Assembly (NCBI GenBank): GCA_035651315.1
Contig: DASRFY010000211.1
Span: forward strand, 148-64,147
Origin: Burkholderiales bacterium
Lineage (GTDB): Bacteria > Pseudomonadota > Gammaproteobacteria > Burkholderiales > Eutrophovitaceae
DNA: 64,000 nucleotides
Direction: 5' to 3'
Below are positions 2,440 through 28,478 of this stretch, in pieces. Each line of letters opens with the position of its first letter. Within the stretch, counting starts at the first letter, position 1. The notes beneath the pieces were generated by a model that was given only the letters and a program-made list of their open reading frames with translations, was not told the origin of the DNA and made no database searches. Both the position numbers and the translations under genes were made by a program.

Positions 2440-2474
2440 CGCTTCTTCCCCGGGCCCGGCGCCTTCCGCCGGCC

Positions 2475-3257
2475 CTATTGTGCCACCCAGCCGCCGTCGA
2501 TCGGCAGCGCGGCGCCGGTGATCGAGGCCCCGGCCTCGCCGGTCAGGAATACCGCCAGCGCGGCCACCTCCTCGATCTTCACGAATTCCTTCGACGGCTG
2601 GCGCTCGAGAATCACCTTCCTGATCACCTCCTCGCGCGGGATGCCGTGCACTTTCGCCTGGTCTTCGATCTGCTTGTCGACAAGCGGCGTGTGCACGTAG
2701 CCGGGGCAGATCGCATTGCAGGTGACGCCGGTGCCCGCGACTTCCAGCGCCACCGTTTTCGTGAGCCCGACCATGCCGTGCTTGGCCGCGATGTAGGCGG
2801 ACTTGAACGGCGAGGCGACCAGGCCGTGGATGGAGGCGATGTTGACGATGCGGCCGAAGCCGCGCCGCTTCATTCCCGGCAGCGCGGCCCGGATCGCATG
2901 AAACGACGACGACAGATTGACGGCGAGGATGTGGTCCCATTTCTCGATCGGGAACTCGTCCACCGGCGCGACGTGCTGGATGCCGGCGTTGTTCACCAGC
3001 ACGTCTACCTTGCCCAGCCGCGACTCGCAGTCCTCGACCATCGCGGCGATCTCGGCCGGCCGCGTCATGTCGGCCGGGTGGTAGAAAGCCTGCACCTTGA
3101 ACTGCGCTTGGATGGCGCCGCGCGCCTTGTCGATCTGCGCCGCATCGCCGAGGCCGTTGAGCGTCACGTCGCATCCCTGGGCTGCAAAGGCGCGCGCGAT
3201 GCCCAGACCGATGCCGCTGGTCGAGCCGGTGACGATGACCGATTTTCCTTTCAGCAT
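2475..3257 (-). CDS. bdhA: 3-hydroxybutyrate dehydrogenase (SDR family)
   Basis: Starts MLKGKSVIVTGSTSGIGLGIA (TGxxxGIG NAD motif). Has the catalytic YxxxK (SAYIAAKHG) and is close to full length versus BdhA proteins. ATG at 3255-3257. Confidence 0.85.
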   Translation of the reverse strand: MLKGKSVIVTGSTSGIGLGIARAFAAQGCDVTLNGLGDAAQIDKARGAIQAQFKVQAFYHPADMTRPAEIAAMVEDCESRLGKVDVLVNNAGIQHVAPVDEFPIEKWDHILAVNLSSSFHAIRAALPGMKRRGFGRIVNIASIHGLVASPFKSAYIAAKHGMVGLTKTVALEVAGTGVTCNAICPGYVHTPLVDKQIEDQAKVHGIPREEVIRKVILERQPSKEFVKIEEVAALAVFLTGEAGASITGAALPIDGGWVAQ

Positions 3258-3311: not shown

Positions 3312-4418
3312 CTACAGCGCCGGGCGAGCGAAGTAGCCGGTCAGCTCGAGATAGCCGAGCCCCGCGATGCGACCGTTTTCCAGCGCGCGCACCGCGCCTT
3401 CCCAGTACACGGTGCCAGTGCTGGCGCGGGCATCGAGCTCCTGGTCGTCCATCAACGGCTGCAGGAGGAATACCCGGTCGCCCGCGCGCAGCCGCATCGC
3501 GACCGGATACTGCGCATTCGTGCGCGGCGAGCGCCAGCGGCGCAAAGCCTCGAACGCGATGTTTCGGCTCGACAGCCGGCGCACCCGACCCGCGGGCTCG
3601 CGCAGCGTGCCGGCCGCCCACAGCGTGGCGCCGTCCCGCGCGCGAATGCGGAATGCCATCAACGCGCCGCCGTCGCTCAAGTTGACGCCGGTCCAGTCCC
3701 AGCCCGCCGCTTCTGGCGCAAGGTATTCGCTGGACCATTCGTGATCGAGCCATGCCTGCCCTGCGACGCGCAGCCGCCTACCTTCGATCTCGATCTGCCC
3801 GCTCACCGCGAGGTGCGGGCGGCTGTAGTAATAGCTCGCCTGCGCCGGCTTGCGCCCTTTCCGGCTGTAGCCGGCCTCGCCCTGCAGCAGGATCGGCTGC
3901 GTGGCCTCGAAGCGCAGATCGAGCGTGAATTCGCGCGCCGCGACGCGGGCGAGATAACGCTCGCCTTCGCGGCGCAGCCGCCAGTCGCCGATGCGCACGT
4001 CGGTGTCGTTCTCCCGCGCGTAGGCAAGGCCGAACCCCTCGCGCGCCGCGCGCTGATCGTGGCGCAGCCGGCCGGCGCGAGGATCGGCGATCGCCGCGTG
4101 CGCGAACAAGAGCTGCTTCGGGGCGAACGCAGACGGATTGTCTTCCTGCACGCCCGGCCGGCTGCGGAAGAACGTGACCTGGAAGCCGAACTCGCTTCCT
4201 CCTTCGTCCCGCAGCCAGCCGGTGACGTACCACCACTCGGTGCGAAAGGCGGAGTGCGCGCCGTCGTCGCGCGGAAATTCCAGCCGGTATCCCGGCCGCA
4301 CCTCGGGAAAGTCTGCGCCTTTTCCGGTCGAAGGCCAAAGAAAGGAGAAACACAACGCAAAGCCCGCAAAGGAGCGCAAAGGTCGCAAAGAAAGGCAAGA
4401 TTTTGGAATGAACGTCAA
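3312..4418 (-). CDS. Lipocalin-like / CrtC (hydroxyneurosporene synthase)-like, AttH-like protein
   Basis: Motif DDGAHSAFRTEWWYVTGWL is typical of the AttH/CrtC lipocalin-like family. The gene lies immediately downstream of FtsX-type ABC genes. The only in-frame start upstream of the signal-like region is TTG at 4418, so the start is uncertain. Confidence 0.7.
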   Translation of the reverse strand: MTFIPKSCLSLRPLRSFAGFALCFSFLWPSTGKGADFPEVRPGYRLEFPRDDGAHSAFRTEWWYVTGWLRDEGGSEFGFQVTFFRSRPGVQEDNPSAFAPKQLLFAHAAIADPRAGRLRHDQRAAREGFGLAYARENDTDVRIGDWRLRREGERYLARVAAREFTLDLRFEATQPILLQGEAGYSRKGRKPAQASYYYSRPHLAVSGQIEIEGRRLRVAGQAWLDHEWSSEYLAPEAAGWDWTGVNLSDGGALMAFRIRARDGATLWAAGTLREPAGRVRRLSSRNIAFEALRRWRSPRTNAQYPVAMRLRAGDRVFLLQPLMDDQELDARASTGTVYWEGAVRALENGRIAGLGYLELTGYFARPAL

Positions 4419-4570
4419 TGCAGCGGCCTGTTATTGCATCGGAGCGTCAACAGGTCAATGTTGTCAGGTATTGCCATCGGTACGCGGGTGACGCCCGGAA
4501 ACATCTCCGTTTTCCCTGTTTACCTTTGCGACCTTTGCGCTCCTTTGCGACCTCTGCGTCCTGCTTTTGT
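4351..4570. repeat. Element A: long inverted repeat built from tandem CGCAAAG heptamers
   Basis: Perfect 26-bp arms at 4365-4390 (cgcaaaggagcgcaaaggtcgcaaag) and 4524-4549 (exact reverse complement), with a 133-nt spacer. The left arm holds 4 CGCAAAG copies at 4356, 4365, 4375 and 4384. An imperfect 10-bp outer extension spans 4355-4364 / 4550-4559. Confidence 0.85.
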
Positions 4571-4594
4571 ATTCGTCGCTTGGGCGCCTTCAGC

Positions 4595-7096
4595 TTACCA
4601 ATCTTCCTTCACCGCCTGCACCGCTTCGTCCGACATCGCCTGGCGGCCGCTCAGCACCGCGGTGAGCACTGCGGCCGCGAGCAGCGCGGCGACGAACGCA
4701 GCCAGCGCGCCGAGCGGCCAGTGCATCTCCATGCTCCAGTGAAAGGATTGCCGGTTGACGACGTAGACCAGGATCACGCTGATCGTCGCGCCGAGGATCA
4801 GGCCGATGGCCGCCGCCATCGCCGCGACGACCAGGCCCTCCAGCACGAGCATCGCGCCGATCTGGGTCCGGCTCACGCCGAGATGCCGCAGCATGCCGAA
4901 CTCGCGCCGCCGTCCGAACGCGCGCACGGCGAAGTTCGCCGACAGCCCGGCCAGCGCGATCACCATCGCCGCGCCTTCGAGCGCGTAGGTTACGGCGAAG
5001 GTGCGGTCGAAGATCGCGAGCGAGCGCGCGCGGATCTCGCCCGGCTGCGCGATCTCGAGCCGGTCTCCGCCCTCGATCGACGCGCGTACCGCCTGCGCCA
5101 CGGCGGCCACGTCGGTGCCGGCGGCCAGCCACAGCCCGGCGTCGTTCGCGGTCGCATCGCCGGTCAGGCGCCGGTAGGTCGCGCGCGAGATCGCGAGCGC
5201 GCCGTTCTGCCTGGCGTAGTCGCGCCACACGCCCGCCACCGCGAAACGATGGGCGGCGCCGCCGAGCGGCAGGCTCACTACCTGACCGATCTTCCATCGG
5301 AACTCGTCCGCCACGTACTCGCTCACCCACACCGGCGGCGCGTCGGGCGGCAAGGCGCCGGCGCTCTTCACCAGCGGGATGGATCGGGCGGGATCGCTCT
5401 CGTCCAGATCACGCGCCAGCAGGGTCACCCGCGGCAGCGCGGGATCGAGCAGGATCTGCTGCACGCGCAGGAATTCCACCCGCCGCACGCCGGGCAGCGC
5501 GCGAATGCGCTCCTGGGTCTCGGGCGGCAGATAGGCGCTGTCGCCCTTCGGCGCGGCACGCAGATACAGATCCGCGGGCAGCACGCGGTCGAGCCAGCCC
5601 TCGAGCGAGACGCGAAAGGAGGCCACCATGATCGCCATCGCCACCGTGAGGCTCACCGCCGCGACCAGCGCCGCCAGACCGACGCTCACCTGTGCCGACG
5701 CAGCGCGCAACTGGGCGACGGCGAGCCGCCGCCACGGGCTGCGCCCCTCCGGCAACCATCGCGCCAGCACGGCGGTGAGGCGGGGCGTGAGCAGGATCGC
5801 GCCCAGCAGCAGCAGCGCGATCGCGAGATAACCGGACAGCGGCAGGCCTTCGACCGCCGGCAGCCAGGCCAGCGCCACGCCGAGCAGGACCAGCACCGCT
5901 CCCGGCCAGGGCGATTCCGCGCGCTCGAAGGCGTGCAGCTCGTCGCCGCTTTTCAATGCCTGCGCGGGCGGGATGCGCGCCGCATCGAGCGCCGGCGCGA
6001 GACTGCCCAGCACCGCGGCCGCCGTGCCGAGCAGGAGGAACAACGCGGTCGCCAGCGGGTCGATGGCCGCGCGCGCCCGCAGATCGCGGAAATACCCCGC
6101 GCCGAGGTCCGCGCCGAATGCATGCAGCATGGCCACAGCAAGCGCCGCGCCCGCGGCGATGCCCGCCGCCGCGCCGGCGCCGCCGACGATCGCGCCCTCG
6201 GCGACGAGCATCCGCAGCAAGGCGCCGCGCGTCACCCCGAGCACGCGCAACAGCGCGAGCTGGGCGCGGCGGCGCACCACCGAAAGCGCCTGCGCGGAGA
6301 ACACCAGCAGGCCGCCGGTGAACAATGCGACCAGCGCGAGCACGTCGAGGTTGACGCGATAGGCGCGGGTCAGCCGGGCGTTCGCCTCGAGAGCGGATTG
6401 CGGGCGCTGCACCGCCACGCCGGCGGGCAGCAGGCGCGATATTCCGGCAGCGAAGTCATCCGCGTCTATACCGGGACGCAGGCGCAGATCGACGCGCGTG
6501 ACCAGGCCTTGGCGCGCGAAGAGCCGCTGCGCGGCGGCGATGTCCATCAGCGCATAAGCCTGCGTTCCCGCGCCGCCGCCCAGAATGCCGGCAAACCGAA
6601 GCTTCGCCTCGCGCAGCCCCGCCTGGAGCGCGACGTGGTCGCCGAGCGCGAGGCGCAGCGCACGCGCCGCGGCGGGAGAGAGGTAGAGGGTGTCCGCGCG
6701 CAGCGTGTCGAGCGGGTCGTCTTGCGGCTCGCTCTCTCGGGCGATGAGCGCCGGCTGCACCCCGGCTGCGCGGAACACGTCGATGCCGATCACGCGCAAG
6801 GTTTCGTCGCGGCCGGCAAGACGCGCTTCGATCTCGAGCGCCGGGCTCGCCTCGCTCACCTCGGGCAACGCCGCGACCTGCGCGTAGAGGCGCTCGGAAA
6901 AACCGGCGCGCGGCCCGCGCAGGCTTAACTCGGCTTCGCCCGCCAGCGCCGCCTCGCCGCGCGCCATTTCCTCCATCGCGGCGCGGTTGATGATCTGCAC
7001 CGCGTAGCCGAGCGCCACGCCGAGCGCGATCGCGGCGGCGGACAGCGCACCTCGCGTCTTGCCGCGCCAGAGCATGCCGGCGACGTGGGCGATCAT
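4595..7096 (-). CDS. ABC transporter permease, FtsX/MacB-like (duplicated FtsX domains)
   Basis: The true start is MIAHVAGMLWRGKTRGALSAAAIALGVALG, with ATG at 7094-7096 overlapping the upstream stop (ATGA). About 833 aa with two FtsX-type 4-TM modules. The longer ORF 4595..7531 N-terminus is Arg-rich junk. Confidence 0.85.
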   Translation of the reverse strand: MIAHVAGMLWRGKTRGALSAAAIALGVALGYAVQIINRAAMEEMARGEAALAGEAELSLRGPRAGFSERLYAQVAALPEVSEASPALEIEARLAGRDETLRVIGIDVFRAAGVQPALIARESEPQDDPLDTLRADTLYLSPAAARALRLALGDHVALQAGLREAKLRFAGILGGGAGTQAYALMDIAAAQRLFARQGLVTRVDLRLRPGIDADDFAAGISRLLPAGVAVQRPQSALEANARLTRAYRVNLDVLALVALFTGGLLVFSAQALSVVRRRAQLALLRVLGVTRGALLRMLVAEGAIVGGAGAAAGIAAGAALAVAMLHAFGADLGAGYFRDLRARAAIDPLATALFLLLGTAAAVLGSLAPALDAARIPPAQALKSGDELHAFERAESPWPGAVLVLLGVALAWLPAVEGLPLSGYLAIALLLLGAILLTPRLTAVLARWLPEGRSPWRRLAVAQLRAASAQVSVGLAALVAAVSLTVAMAIMVASFRVSLEGWLDRVLPADLYLRAAPKGDSAYLPPETQERIRALPGVRRVEFLRVQQILLDPALPRVTLLARDLDESDPARSIPLVKSAGALPPDAPPVWVSEYVADEFRWKIGQVVSLPLGGAAHRFAVAGVWRDYARQNGALAISRATYRRLTGDATANDAGLWLAAGTDVAAVAQAVRASIEGGDRLEIAQPGEIRARSLAIFDRTFAVTYALEGAAMVIALAGLSANFAVRAFGRRREFGMLRHLGVSRTQIGAMLVLEGLVVAAMAAAIGLILGATISVILVYVVNRQSFHWSMEMHWPLGALAAFVAALLAAAVLTAVLSGRQAMSDEAVQAVKEDW

Positions 7097-7776: not shown

Positions 7777-7865
7777 CCGCGGATCATAACGCTTCGTCCG
7801 GCGGCGCCGCTCTCGCGCCGCGCAACCGCGGCGCGCGGCGCCTTGCAAAGCGCTGCTATACTCGC

Positions 7866-7982
7866 GGCTCCTTGGGGAGTAGCCGCCCTCCGGTGTCGTG
7901 GAGGGGGATGCGTCAACACACTCGACCTGGCGGTCGTGGCGCATCCGGCGCCGCAGCGCGGGCATGGCGAGACCAATGGCAG
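7866..7982 (+). promoter_or_regulatory. yybP-ykoY (manganese) riboswitch candidate
   Basis: Conserved blocks are present in the right order: cuuGGGGAGUAGcc (7871-7884), a CCCUCC/GGAGGG hairpin, GUCAACACA (7912-7920), and GGCGAGACCaaugg (7966-7979) closing P1 against ccuugg. It sits upstream of a UPF0016/GDT1 gene, a known riboswitch-regulated family. Confidence 0.65.
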
Positions 7983-8056
7983 CAGCGCCGGCTCGGGGCT
8001 CGGGCGGCGGTGCTCTGCCATCGGTCCACCGCTGCCCAGCCCACCGCATCCTGTTC

Positions 8057-14448: not shown

Positions 14449-14722
14449 CGCCTCAACGCAGTGGCGCAGAATCCAAATCCACTTCTCAACGCAGAGGCGC
14501 AGAGGACGCAGAGTTCGCAGAGGAAAATCGGGAATGAAATGTGTGGACAGCAGATCGTCGGACTTGAACATGGAGAAGCGCATTTGAGCACATCCGCGTC
14601 GACTGCCAATGCAAGACAAGGCCAATGCTTACACCCTATCTCTTCCACATAGCACGACTGTGGCTCCGGTATCGAGTTCTTTCTCTGCGAACTCTGCGTC
14701 CTCTGCGCCTCTGCGTTGAGAT
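14449..14722. repeat. Element B: long inverted repeat built from tandem CGCAGAG heptamers
   Basis: Perfect 38-bp arms at 14485-14522 (ctcaacgcagaggcgcagaggacgcagagttcgcagag) and 14683-14720, with a 160-nt spacer. CGCAGAG copies at 14490, 14498, 14507 and 14516. An unpaired partial copy of the arm start (ctcaacgcagtggcgcaga) lies at 14451-14469. Confidence 0.9.
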
Positions 14723-14743
14723 TTCGATGTTAGGAGTTAATTC

Positions 14744-17463: not shown

Positions 17464-17608
17464 ATTGACCTCATTTCTCCTTTCAGTCCGATCCGCAACT
17501 AAAGCAGGGGCAATATATGATTCAAGTACAAGATGTACAAGAATAATTATTGGAATGTATTATTCAATTTATCTGAATGTTTCAAGTGCACTCCGGCAGG
17601 AATTGGAC

Positions 17609-23621: not shown

Positions 23622-23679
23622 CGGCGGGCGATCCGGACCAGTGCCAACGGTTGAGACAAGGTATTGGTTTGTTTTGTTT

Positions 23680-23695
23680 CTGACTATTTAGTCAG
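23680..23695. promoter_or_regulatory. LysR-type binding site candidate (dyad CTGACT-N4-AGTCAG)
   Basis: A perfect 6-bp dyad sits in the AT-rich 115-bp divergent region between the RND operon and the LysR gene, and fits the T-N11-A LysR box. Confidence 0.4.
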
Positions 23696-23736
23696 TTATT
23701 TGCCGCGCATGATAAACGACTTTTGATTTCCGGACC

Positions 23737-28318: not shown

Positions 28319-28478
28319 TTAACCACAGAGACTCAAAGACACAGAGAAAATCCGGATTAACCACCAAGGCACCAAGGAAATCGTAAAAGTTGTTCCTGAG
28401 TTTCTTGGTGTCTTTTGTGCCTTAGTGGTGATATATCGCTTTGGAAGTTCTCTGTGCCTCTGTGTCTCTGTGGTTCTA
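28319..28478. repeat. Element C: nested inverted repeats built from CACAGAG and CACCAAGG tandem units
   Basis: Outer arms 28321-28348 / 28448-28475 match at 25/28 and share aaccacagagac and cacagagaa. Inner arms 28359-28380 / 28401-28430 (accaccaaggcac vs accactaaggcac) are imperfect. The central loop is about 20 nt. Confidence 0.85.

Follow-up and report, generated by a model that had tools for sequence, protein, structure and literature searches.

The window analyzed here is a 64-kb stretch (64,000 nucleotides, nt) of contig DASRFY010000211.1 from a Burkholderiales bacterium (GCA_035651315.1), and it carries a long inverted repeat, here called element A, at the junction between two co-directional genes encoding an ATP-binding cassette (ABC) permease and an AttH-like lipocalin. 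The closest named homologs come from uncultured Burkholderiales. Element A belongs to a family of heptamer-repeat elements, as described below. The locus comprises the following features, with coordinates given as positions in the window.

3312-4418, minus strand: AttH/CrtC-like lipocalin gene; the Pfam domain starts about 50 residues into the protein
4348-4390, minus strand: promoter-distal arm of element A (3' in the mRNA sense), made of CTTTGCG units, with its core at 4365-4390
4391-4523, minus strand: loop of element A, 133 nt, holding the likely AttH start and an upstream open reading frame (ORF) of 29 codons
4415-4504, minus strand: this small 29-codon ORF, from ATG 4504 to TGA 4415, beginning MFPGVTRVPM
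4524-4566, minus strand: promoter-proximal arm of element A (5' in the mRNA sense), which reads CGCAGAG and then three times CGCAAAG on the minus strand, with its core at 4524-4549
4595-7072, minus strand: FtsX/MacB-type (MacB_PCD) ABC permease gene, upstream of AttH; stop codon at 4595-4597, start approximate

In agreement with the initial annotation of this DNA, the segments 4365-4390 and 4524-4549 form a perfect 26-bp complement with 133 nt between them. Extended to 4348-4390 and 4524-4566, the arms are 43 nt long and 86% complementary; all six mismatches are confined to 4350-4364, the outer 17 bp having decayed, and the outer ends read ACACAA...TCCTGC. Each arm holds four heptamers that, with their spacers, follow a 9- to 10-nt period: the CGCAAAG units reported at 4356, 4365, 4375, and 4384 are indeed present in the left arm, and the right arm contains CTTTGCG at 4524, 4533, and 4543 and CTCTGCG at 4552. 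Two copies of the doublet CGCAAAGNNNCGCAAAG are present in the window, compared to 0.02 expected from shuffles, and arrays of at least three CRCNRAG units occur five times, compared to 0.02 in shuffles. We could also reproduce the strand asymmetry described for the 10 bp outside the core, which on the minus strand contain two G·U pairs and one G·G and on the plus strand contain three mismatches (A·C, C·C, and C·A), as well as the local dip in GC content (0.51 to 0.54, compared to ∼0.70 in the flanks).

The predicted RNA fold of element A is strong on both strands, at -117.6 kcal/mol (z = -6.95) for the minus strand and -111.9 kcal/mol (z = -5.58) for the plus strand. It is thus slightly better on the strand that corresponds to the mRNA, and none of 200 shuffles reached the native fold on either strand. 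When the transition-type arm mismatches of element A (four) are pooled with those of two sister elements, B and C, all seven are G·U on the mRNA-sense strand (one-sided P = 0.008), including all four in element A. No known RNA family was found at A, B, or C when the window was scanned against Rfam 15 at the gathering score; a permissive scan of 4250-4650 yielded nothing credible, and none of eleven related loci matched a family. At the gathering score, the window yielded a single match, a manganese (yybP-ykoY) riboswitch at 7862-8001 on the plus strand (57.4 bits; expect value, E, of 1.7e-12), just upstream of the permease operon region.

Gene callers disagree on where the AttH gene starts. 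The most likely start is TTG 4418, inside the loop of element A, with 4388 and 4379 as possible alternatives; the stop codon of the loop ORF overlaps TTG 4418 as ATTGA, and the VTRV.M of this ORF matches the called N terminus of the ortholog P0045. The 3' arm of element A is in frame in the AttH ORF, where it specifies ..SLRPLRSFAGFALCF.. within the signal peptide (residues ∼10 to 24), which is conserved in the orthologs P0007 and P0045. The initial annotation had placed the element within a 176-nt gap between the two genes. The length of the gap (4419-4594) is arithmetically correct, but since the arm 4348-4390 lies inside the AttH ORF if TTG 4418 is the start, element A is not wholly intergenic. 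As a scan of 4200-4700 found no promoter-like or terminator-like sites, its co-transcription with the operon appears plausible from the sequence. Two independent metagenome contigs, those of P0003 and P0005 (L003 1-51), start 24 to 52 nt upstream of the AttH domain, in the region of the signal peptide, which is where assemblies should end if they are broken by a hairpin repeat at the AttH junction.

An inverted-repeat scan of the window revealed two further elements of the same build.

14477-14728: element B, with 49-nt arms of four CGCAGAG units each, 92% complementary, and a 154-nt loop
28321-28475: element C, with outer arms of CACAGAG units and nested inner arms of CACCAAGG units

Element B is flanked by two genes of the plus strand, a boxC-like gene for an enoyl-coenzyme A hydratase and one resembling boxB, and its outer clamp is TCTCAA/TTGAGA. 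Element C is located in an efflux operon, where it separates the stop codon of a membrane-fusion gene from the start codon of a resistance-nodulation-division (RND) pump gene, both genes being on the minus strand. All three elements are thus located between co-directional genes, and their arms are laid out in a common order (CAA, then units alternating with spacers, then an A-rich stretch), whereas their loops show no significant similarity to each other in either orientation. Small peptides, cysteine rich or other, could be rejected as a loop cargo, as none recurs across A, B, and C, and C contains none. The nested arm pair of element C (28354-28442) uses a different unit, CACCAAGG/CTTGGTG, and additional degenerate units (CAACGCAGTGGCGCAGAAT) that adjoin the left arm of element B on its outer side, at 14450-14476, look like a partially duplicated or older arm layer. 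Two other low-GC intergenic stretches of the window, 17480-17600 (down to 37%) and 23650-23730 (47%), carry no heptamer arrays and look like ordinary divergent promoter regions, one of them upstream of a LysR-like gene.

To relate these elements to loci elsewhere, we used a profile (nhmmer hidden Markov model) built only from the arms of metagenomic loci that encode GxxExxY, a small nuclease family described below. Searched against the 64-kb window, this profile gave 11 matches with E < 1, all of them in A, B, and C, in both arms and with the right polarity, and no matches elsewhere. The best E values were 1.4e-4 for B, 4e-3 for C, and 0.035 for A, whose other registers and other arm scored between 0.17 and 0.26. 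Element A shares with the family at least three tandem CRCNRAG units at a period of 8 to 11 nt in its 5' arm, a complementary array downstream with the unit array coming first, a weak but specific score against a profile of independent arms, and a 133-nt loop that falls within the short mode of the family, whose loops are either a single ORF or shorter than 200 nt. Missing from element A is the usual outer clamp, of which element B has the form TCTCAA...TTGAGA. The hairpin is real, but it is not a feature peculiar to the permease-AttH junction; it is a copy of a dispersed family.

This family of tandem-heptamer inverted repeats exists across many phyla. Its 5' arm contains three or four tandem heptamers of consensus CRCNRAG, spaced 8 to 10 nt apart, and its 3' arm is the complement. 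A scan for three CGCARAG units separated by 1 to 3 nt, with each species represented by one genome, gave at least 120 loci. Among the matches listed were Chloroflexota, Acidobacteriota, Planctomycetota, Verrucomicrobiota, Cyanobacteria, Bacteroidota (including Flavobacterium, with 33% GC), several proteobacterial classes, Sorangium, and Geomonas, together with the other Burkholderiales Rubrivivax and Polaromonas. Cultivable carriers include Algoriphagus sp. A40 (L089), Sorangium cellulosum So0157-2 (L068 and L118), Geomonas propionica, and a Flavobacterium. Viral contigs also contained at least 120 loci with three CGCARAG units. Raw counts of the pattern had to be discarded as evidence, however, as scrambled heptamers searched in viral contigs gave 77 and at least 120 loci, most of which were same-strand repeats of period 9. 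We therefore relied only on inverted pairing, polarity, and gene linkage.

It is in their pairing that the arrays are specific. In the 120 genome loci listed, 89 of 157 CGCARAG arrays had an inverted partner within 1.6 kb, most loops being 10 to 190 nt long. With strict matching, a complementary array was found nearby in 21 of the 120 genome loci and 9 of the 120 viral loci listed, compared to 0 of 77 and 0 of 120 loci for the scrambled heptamers. The polarity is nearly invariant: of 57 adjacent pairs, 54 begin with the CRCNRAG array and only 3 with its complement (binomial P < 1e-12). Unit positions 1, 3, 6, and 7 (C, C, A, and G) recur across phyla and positions 2, 4, and 5 vary, as judged on units that were detected with the CRCNRAG pattern itself. 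Outer clamps such as TTCAC...GTGAA, TTTAAC...GTTAAA, and TCTCA...TGAGA are frequent but not universal. Nesting of copies in onion-like fashion is frequent, with element C, L014 560-1280, and L019 5767-6063 as examples. No target-site duplication flanked any of 63 delimited elements, A and B included.

Some loci showed further arrangements. In a recurrent layout, a solo 5' arm and a gene are followed by a complete short hairpin with the same arms (L204 6334-7354, L142 914-1405, and L008 5300-6148), which would permit a single 3' arm to pair in either of two ways. At L119 6349-6440, a heptamer array ends ∼20 nt before a probable tRNA gene (GGGGCGTAGCTCAGTT...). A link of the family to rRNA intervening sequences was considered and rejected, as none of the fetched loci contained rRNA motifs.

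When ORFs within 400 nt of the arrays were clustered, GxxExxY was the one family that recurred across phyla. These proteins of ∼125 amino acids (378-nt ORF) match TIGR04256 and PF13366 (PD-(D/E)XK) and, weakly, Cas4, and their D..ExK catalytic residues are invariant. A sequence search of the PDB with GxxExxY found no homolog, and an AlphaFold model proved unusable (predicted local distance difference test score of 42). In L089, L122, L008, L083, and L085 (the last being frameshifted), the arms bracket the GxxExxY ORF exactly. Loop lengths across all elements are bimodal, as listed here; most of the long-loop elements come from loci that were chosen for the gene, with five gene-bearing ones coming from genomes selected for the repeat.

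Loops under 200 nt: 65 elements, no gene
Loops of 200 to 350 nt: 2 elements
Loops of at least 350 nt: 34 elements, 32 of them with a GxxExxY ORF

Many of the long loops measure 373 to 400 nt, compared to 378 nt for the ORF itself. The association also held in the reverse direction. We took 80 metagenomic GxxExxY loci by protein motifs only, 74 of which had enough flanking sequence, and in 44 of these 74 the flanks form an inverted repeat scoring at least 16, with shuffled flanks scoring well below. Their arms are built of CGCAGAG, CACAGAG, CGCAAAG, CACGGAG, and similar units and usually lie 0 to 30 nt from the start and stop codons. The cassettes are mostly co-oriented with their neighbors, by 32 to 4 upstream and 31 to 7 downstream, which fits promoter-less units that are read from host operons. 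In viral contigs the arms bracket other ORFs, including those for a glycoside hydrolase family 108 (GH108) lysozyme and an N4 gp49-like protein, so that the arms are a general bracket, with GxxExxY as the most common cargo in cells. We detected no GxxExxY gene or remnant in the window or in the short loops.

The history of element A could be approached through orthologous junctions, a comparison that the initial annotation had called for and that gave two different pictures. In the ortholog with 88% identity (L001), the permease stop overlaps the AttH start (TGATG), the signal peptide is different, and no element can be recognized at the junction, any traces being doubtful. The ortholog with 71% identity (L002), in contrast, retains a decayed, loop-shortened homolog of element A, whose collinear remnants comprise a degenerate 5' arm (GACGCGATGGCCGCAAATGG...), an exact 11-mer, GGAGATGTTTC, in common with the loop of element A, and an exact 15-mer (15/15 nt), TTGCGCTCCTTTGCG, in common with its 3' arm. 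The 15-mer is in frame in L002 and encodes LRSFA of the signal peptide, a region that P0045 shares at the protein level. The arm profile found no match at the junctions of L002 and L001, because the arms there are too decayed, and the homology of L002 is based on the in-frame peptide and on the two collinear exact matches of 15 and 11 nt. Together, these remnants and the shared peptide indicate that element A was inserted before the window lineage split from that of L002, that its 3' arm has become AttH coding sequence, and that the AttH start most likely lies in the loop.

Two further comparisons bear on how such copies come, go, and change. The orthologous GxxExxY cassettes L131 and L149 (arms flanking 1501-1875) have genes that are 94.7% identical, and the differences in the 5' arm are clustered and make that arm match the opposite arm in L149, which suggests arm-to-arm conversion in this pair. 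A solo pyrimidine-type array (CCCCGCG, CTCCGCG, CTCTGCG, and then GTGA) was observed at the junction from SDR to CDGSH in L003 (2012-2048; profile E = 3.6e-4). It is decayed in L002 (5880-5925) and absent from the window (2440-2480), a presence/absence polymorphism of another copy.

Taking these data together, we favor, with moderate confidence, the view that element A is a copy, without a gene, of a cassette-like family of dispersed inverted repeats and that it folds into a long duplex in the mRNA of the operon. The loop of the family is either short (10 to 190 nt) or exactly one small ORF, in cells almost always GxxExxY and in viral contigs others. In this view, the copy entered the permease-AttH junction before the window and L002 lineages separated, and its 3' arm was recruited as signal-peptide codons of AttH, with the AttH start in the loop. 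Co-transcribed with the operon, element A would form a duplex of 36 to 43 bp in the mRNA, in which the C/U-rich arm would be buried. On the model of rRNA intervening sequences and the processing sites of phage T7, this duplex may be a substrate for an RNase III-type enzyme, and the hairpin may serve as a structure between cistrons or as a processing module; to translate AttH, ribosomes that start in the loop would then have to melt the duplex. At the DNA level, the arms may also serve as the ends by which copies of the family are made or homogenized, with the GxxExxY nuclease as the leading candidate enzyme.

Several observations weigh against this interpretation. Element A scores weakly against the profile (E = 0.035) and has no outer clamp of the usual TTCAC/GTGAA type. 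Selection at the RNA level is not seen across the family: sense-strand G·U and A·C mismatches are balanced in gene-bearing (62 to 70) and short (67 to 80) elements, there is no G·U skew per element (P = 0.61), and the seven of seven G·U mismatches in the window could thus be fortuitous or stem from a mutation bias linked to transcription. The perfect 26-bp core is left unexplained by neutral decay if the insertion is ancient; as the core is intact although the arms of L002 have decayed, either pairing has been selected or the upstream arm has been repeatedly corrected against the coding arm. No target-site duplication was found, and no GxxExxY gene lies in the window, so that mobility and the enzyme responsible are hypothetical. 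Finally, the GxxExxY gene is found in 0 of the 120 viral-contig loci listed even though the same arms are present, which weakens the case for GxxExxY as the mobilizing enzyme.

More tentatively, and with some doubt on our part, the arms of the ORF-bracketing cassette class as a whole, in cellular phyla and phage contigs alike, may be recognition or processing sites, either of the GxxExxY nuclease or of RNase III acting on operon transcripts. If so, the cassette class would resemble the REPIN-RAYT system or an rRNA intervening sequence, and both the large paralog families of GxxExxY and the many gene-less operon hairpins would be explained.

Alternatively, the elements might function at the DNA level only, with the arms serving as terminal inverted repeats, cruciforms, or protein-binding arrays and the RNA hairpin being a by-product. 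We consider this unlikely. Heptamer sites about one helical turn apart could be recognized by a nuclease or recombinase, such as GxxExxY, or by a host protein. In favor of this reading, C, C, A, and G recur at unit positions 1, 3, 6, and 7 across phyla, the array polarity is strict, as would be expected of sequence-specific ends, the arm mismatches show no family-wide preference for G·U, and the catalytic residues of GxxExxY are invariant. The nested copies in L014 and element C would further suggest insertion into existing copies, and the cluster of arm differences in L131 and L149 would suggest conversion between arms. Yet no target-site duplications were found, the spacing of the units varies between 8 and 10 nt, and the viral copies lack GxxExxY. 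Moreover, the arms abut start and stop codons and the cassettes follow the orientation of flanking genes, both of which point to a role in expression, and all seven transition-type mismatches in the window elements are wobble pairs on the sense strand.

Element A could also be a dedicated riboregulator of AttH, in which the early coding region pairs with an upstream complement to control translation or mRNA stability. This possibility, which we regard as quite improbable, draws on the position of the 3' arm over AttH codons ∼10 to 24, on the probable start codon in the loop, on the four of four transition-type mismatches in A that are G·U on the mRNA strand, and on a core that is perfect even though the insertion predates the split from L002, where the arms decayed. 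It is difficult to reconcile with the same architecture being present at unrelated genes (boxC/boxB and the RND pump operon) and in many phyla, with the closest ortholog (88%) having tightly coupled stop and start codons and no recognizable element, and with there being no Rfam match and no conserved loop resembling a ligand pocket.

A local accident, namely, a template-switch inverted duplication that copied the AttH signal-peptide region to a position 133 nt upstream, is highly unlikely. The promoter-distal arm is ancestral coding sequence in common with L002 and, as protein, with P0045, and the profile match of element A is marginal (E = 0.035), both as this explanation would have it; however, four heptamers with the spacing and polarity typical of the family would hardly arise in an ordinary signal-peptide region, the arm layout recurs in B and C, remnants of the upstream arm and of the loop persist in L002, and every profile match in the window falls within A, B, or C. 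It is equally improbable that the hairpin acts as a transcription terminator or attenuator to keep the transcripts of permease and AttH apart, since, although a large, stable hairpin does follow the permease stop codon, the scan of 4200-4700 found no U-tract or terminator-like site, a 133-nt loop with 43-nt arms is unlike the short G+C-rich stem and small loop of intrinsic terminators, and the downstream arm is translated.

Conceptually, the known systems nearest to the elements are the repetitive extragenic palindromic (REP) sequences and bacterial interspersed mosaic elements (BIMEs) with the REPIN-RAYT system, the rRNA intervening sequences, and the miniature inverted-repeat transposable elements. 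REPs and BIMEs, too, are short intergenic hairpin repeats dispersed in a genome, often within operons, where REPs of Escherichia coli act as mRNA stabilizers; in REPIN-RAYT, a small nuclease-type gene is likewise flanked by repeats of which many gene-less copies exist elsewhere. The differences are nevertheless substantial. The arms described here are tandem heptamers rather than a 20- to 40-nt palindrome with a GTAG/CGTC head (no such head is present in element A), the enclosed protein is a PF13366/TIGR04256 PD-(D/E)XK protein with many copies per genome rather than a Y1 HUH transposase of the RAYT (REP-associated tyrosine transposase) type, and the heptamer family, unlike REPIN-RAYT, spans many phyla and viral contigs. 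Background on REPINs and RAYTs can be found in PMC3116915 and PMC3733652.

In the intervening sequences of 23S rRNA and the RNase III sites of phage T7, a long stem joins the ends of an inserted segment, sometimes with a small ORF, much as it does here. RNase III cuts these stems, and the flanking RNA remains functional. The elements analyzed here, however, lie outside rRNA, the stems of intervening sequences are not tandem heptamers, and RNase III cleavage of our elements is inferred only. Miniature inverted-repeat transposable elements (MITEs) such as Correia and Nezha are similarly small, noncoding, and intergenic and have terminal inverted repeats, but we found no target-site duplication and no internal sequence common to the loops of A, B, and C, and we know of no DDE or other transposase parent for the heptamer-repeat elements. 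The palindromic elements of Rickettsia are hairpin repeats that can join protein-coding sequence in frame. Element A resembles them in its in-frame coding arm but is not known to be related to them in sequence, architecture, or host range.

Contiguous heptamer direct repeats have been described as TAACTGA in Beggiatoaceae (PMC4679880) and as the short tandemly repeated repetitive (STRR) sequences of cyanobacteria. Like the arrays here, they are intergenic heptamers often found just upstream of start codons, in Cyanobacteria and Bacteroidota, but they run head to tail with period 7 on one strand and have no partner, whereas our units have 1- to 3-nt spacers and an inverted partner in fixed polarity. 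Repeats of this general kind, forming dispersed hairpins and linked to a small nuclease gene, are known. For heptamer arrays associated with GxxExxY, or for any of these arrays or GxxExxY-flanking repeats, we found no published description in Rfam or the searchable literature, the coverage of which is incomplete, so that an earlier description is possible.

GxxExxY is one of the large multicopy families of unknown function in environmental bacteria. A protein search returned at least 7,999 matches at E ≤ 1e-10, with 8,000 candidates scored, and a 2012 survey of PD-(D/E)XK proteins listed the function of the family as unknown (PMC3424549). Our analysis shows that its genes usually lie inside a heptamer inverted repeat and that the gene-less repeat occurs in the operons of many phyla and in phage contigs. 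This link, together with the scattered gene-less repeats, provides a concrete substrate to test for the nuclease, either DNA ends or an RNA duplex. For annotation, such heptamer hairpins should be expected to break assemblies, and they can mislead the calling of start codons, as at AttH, and can contribute coding sequence, as in the AttH signal peptide.

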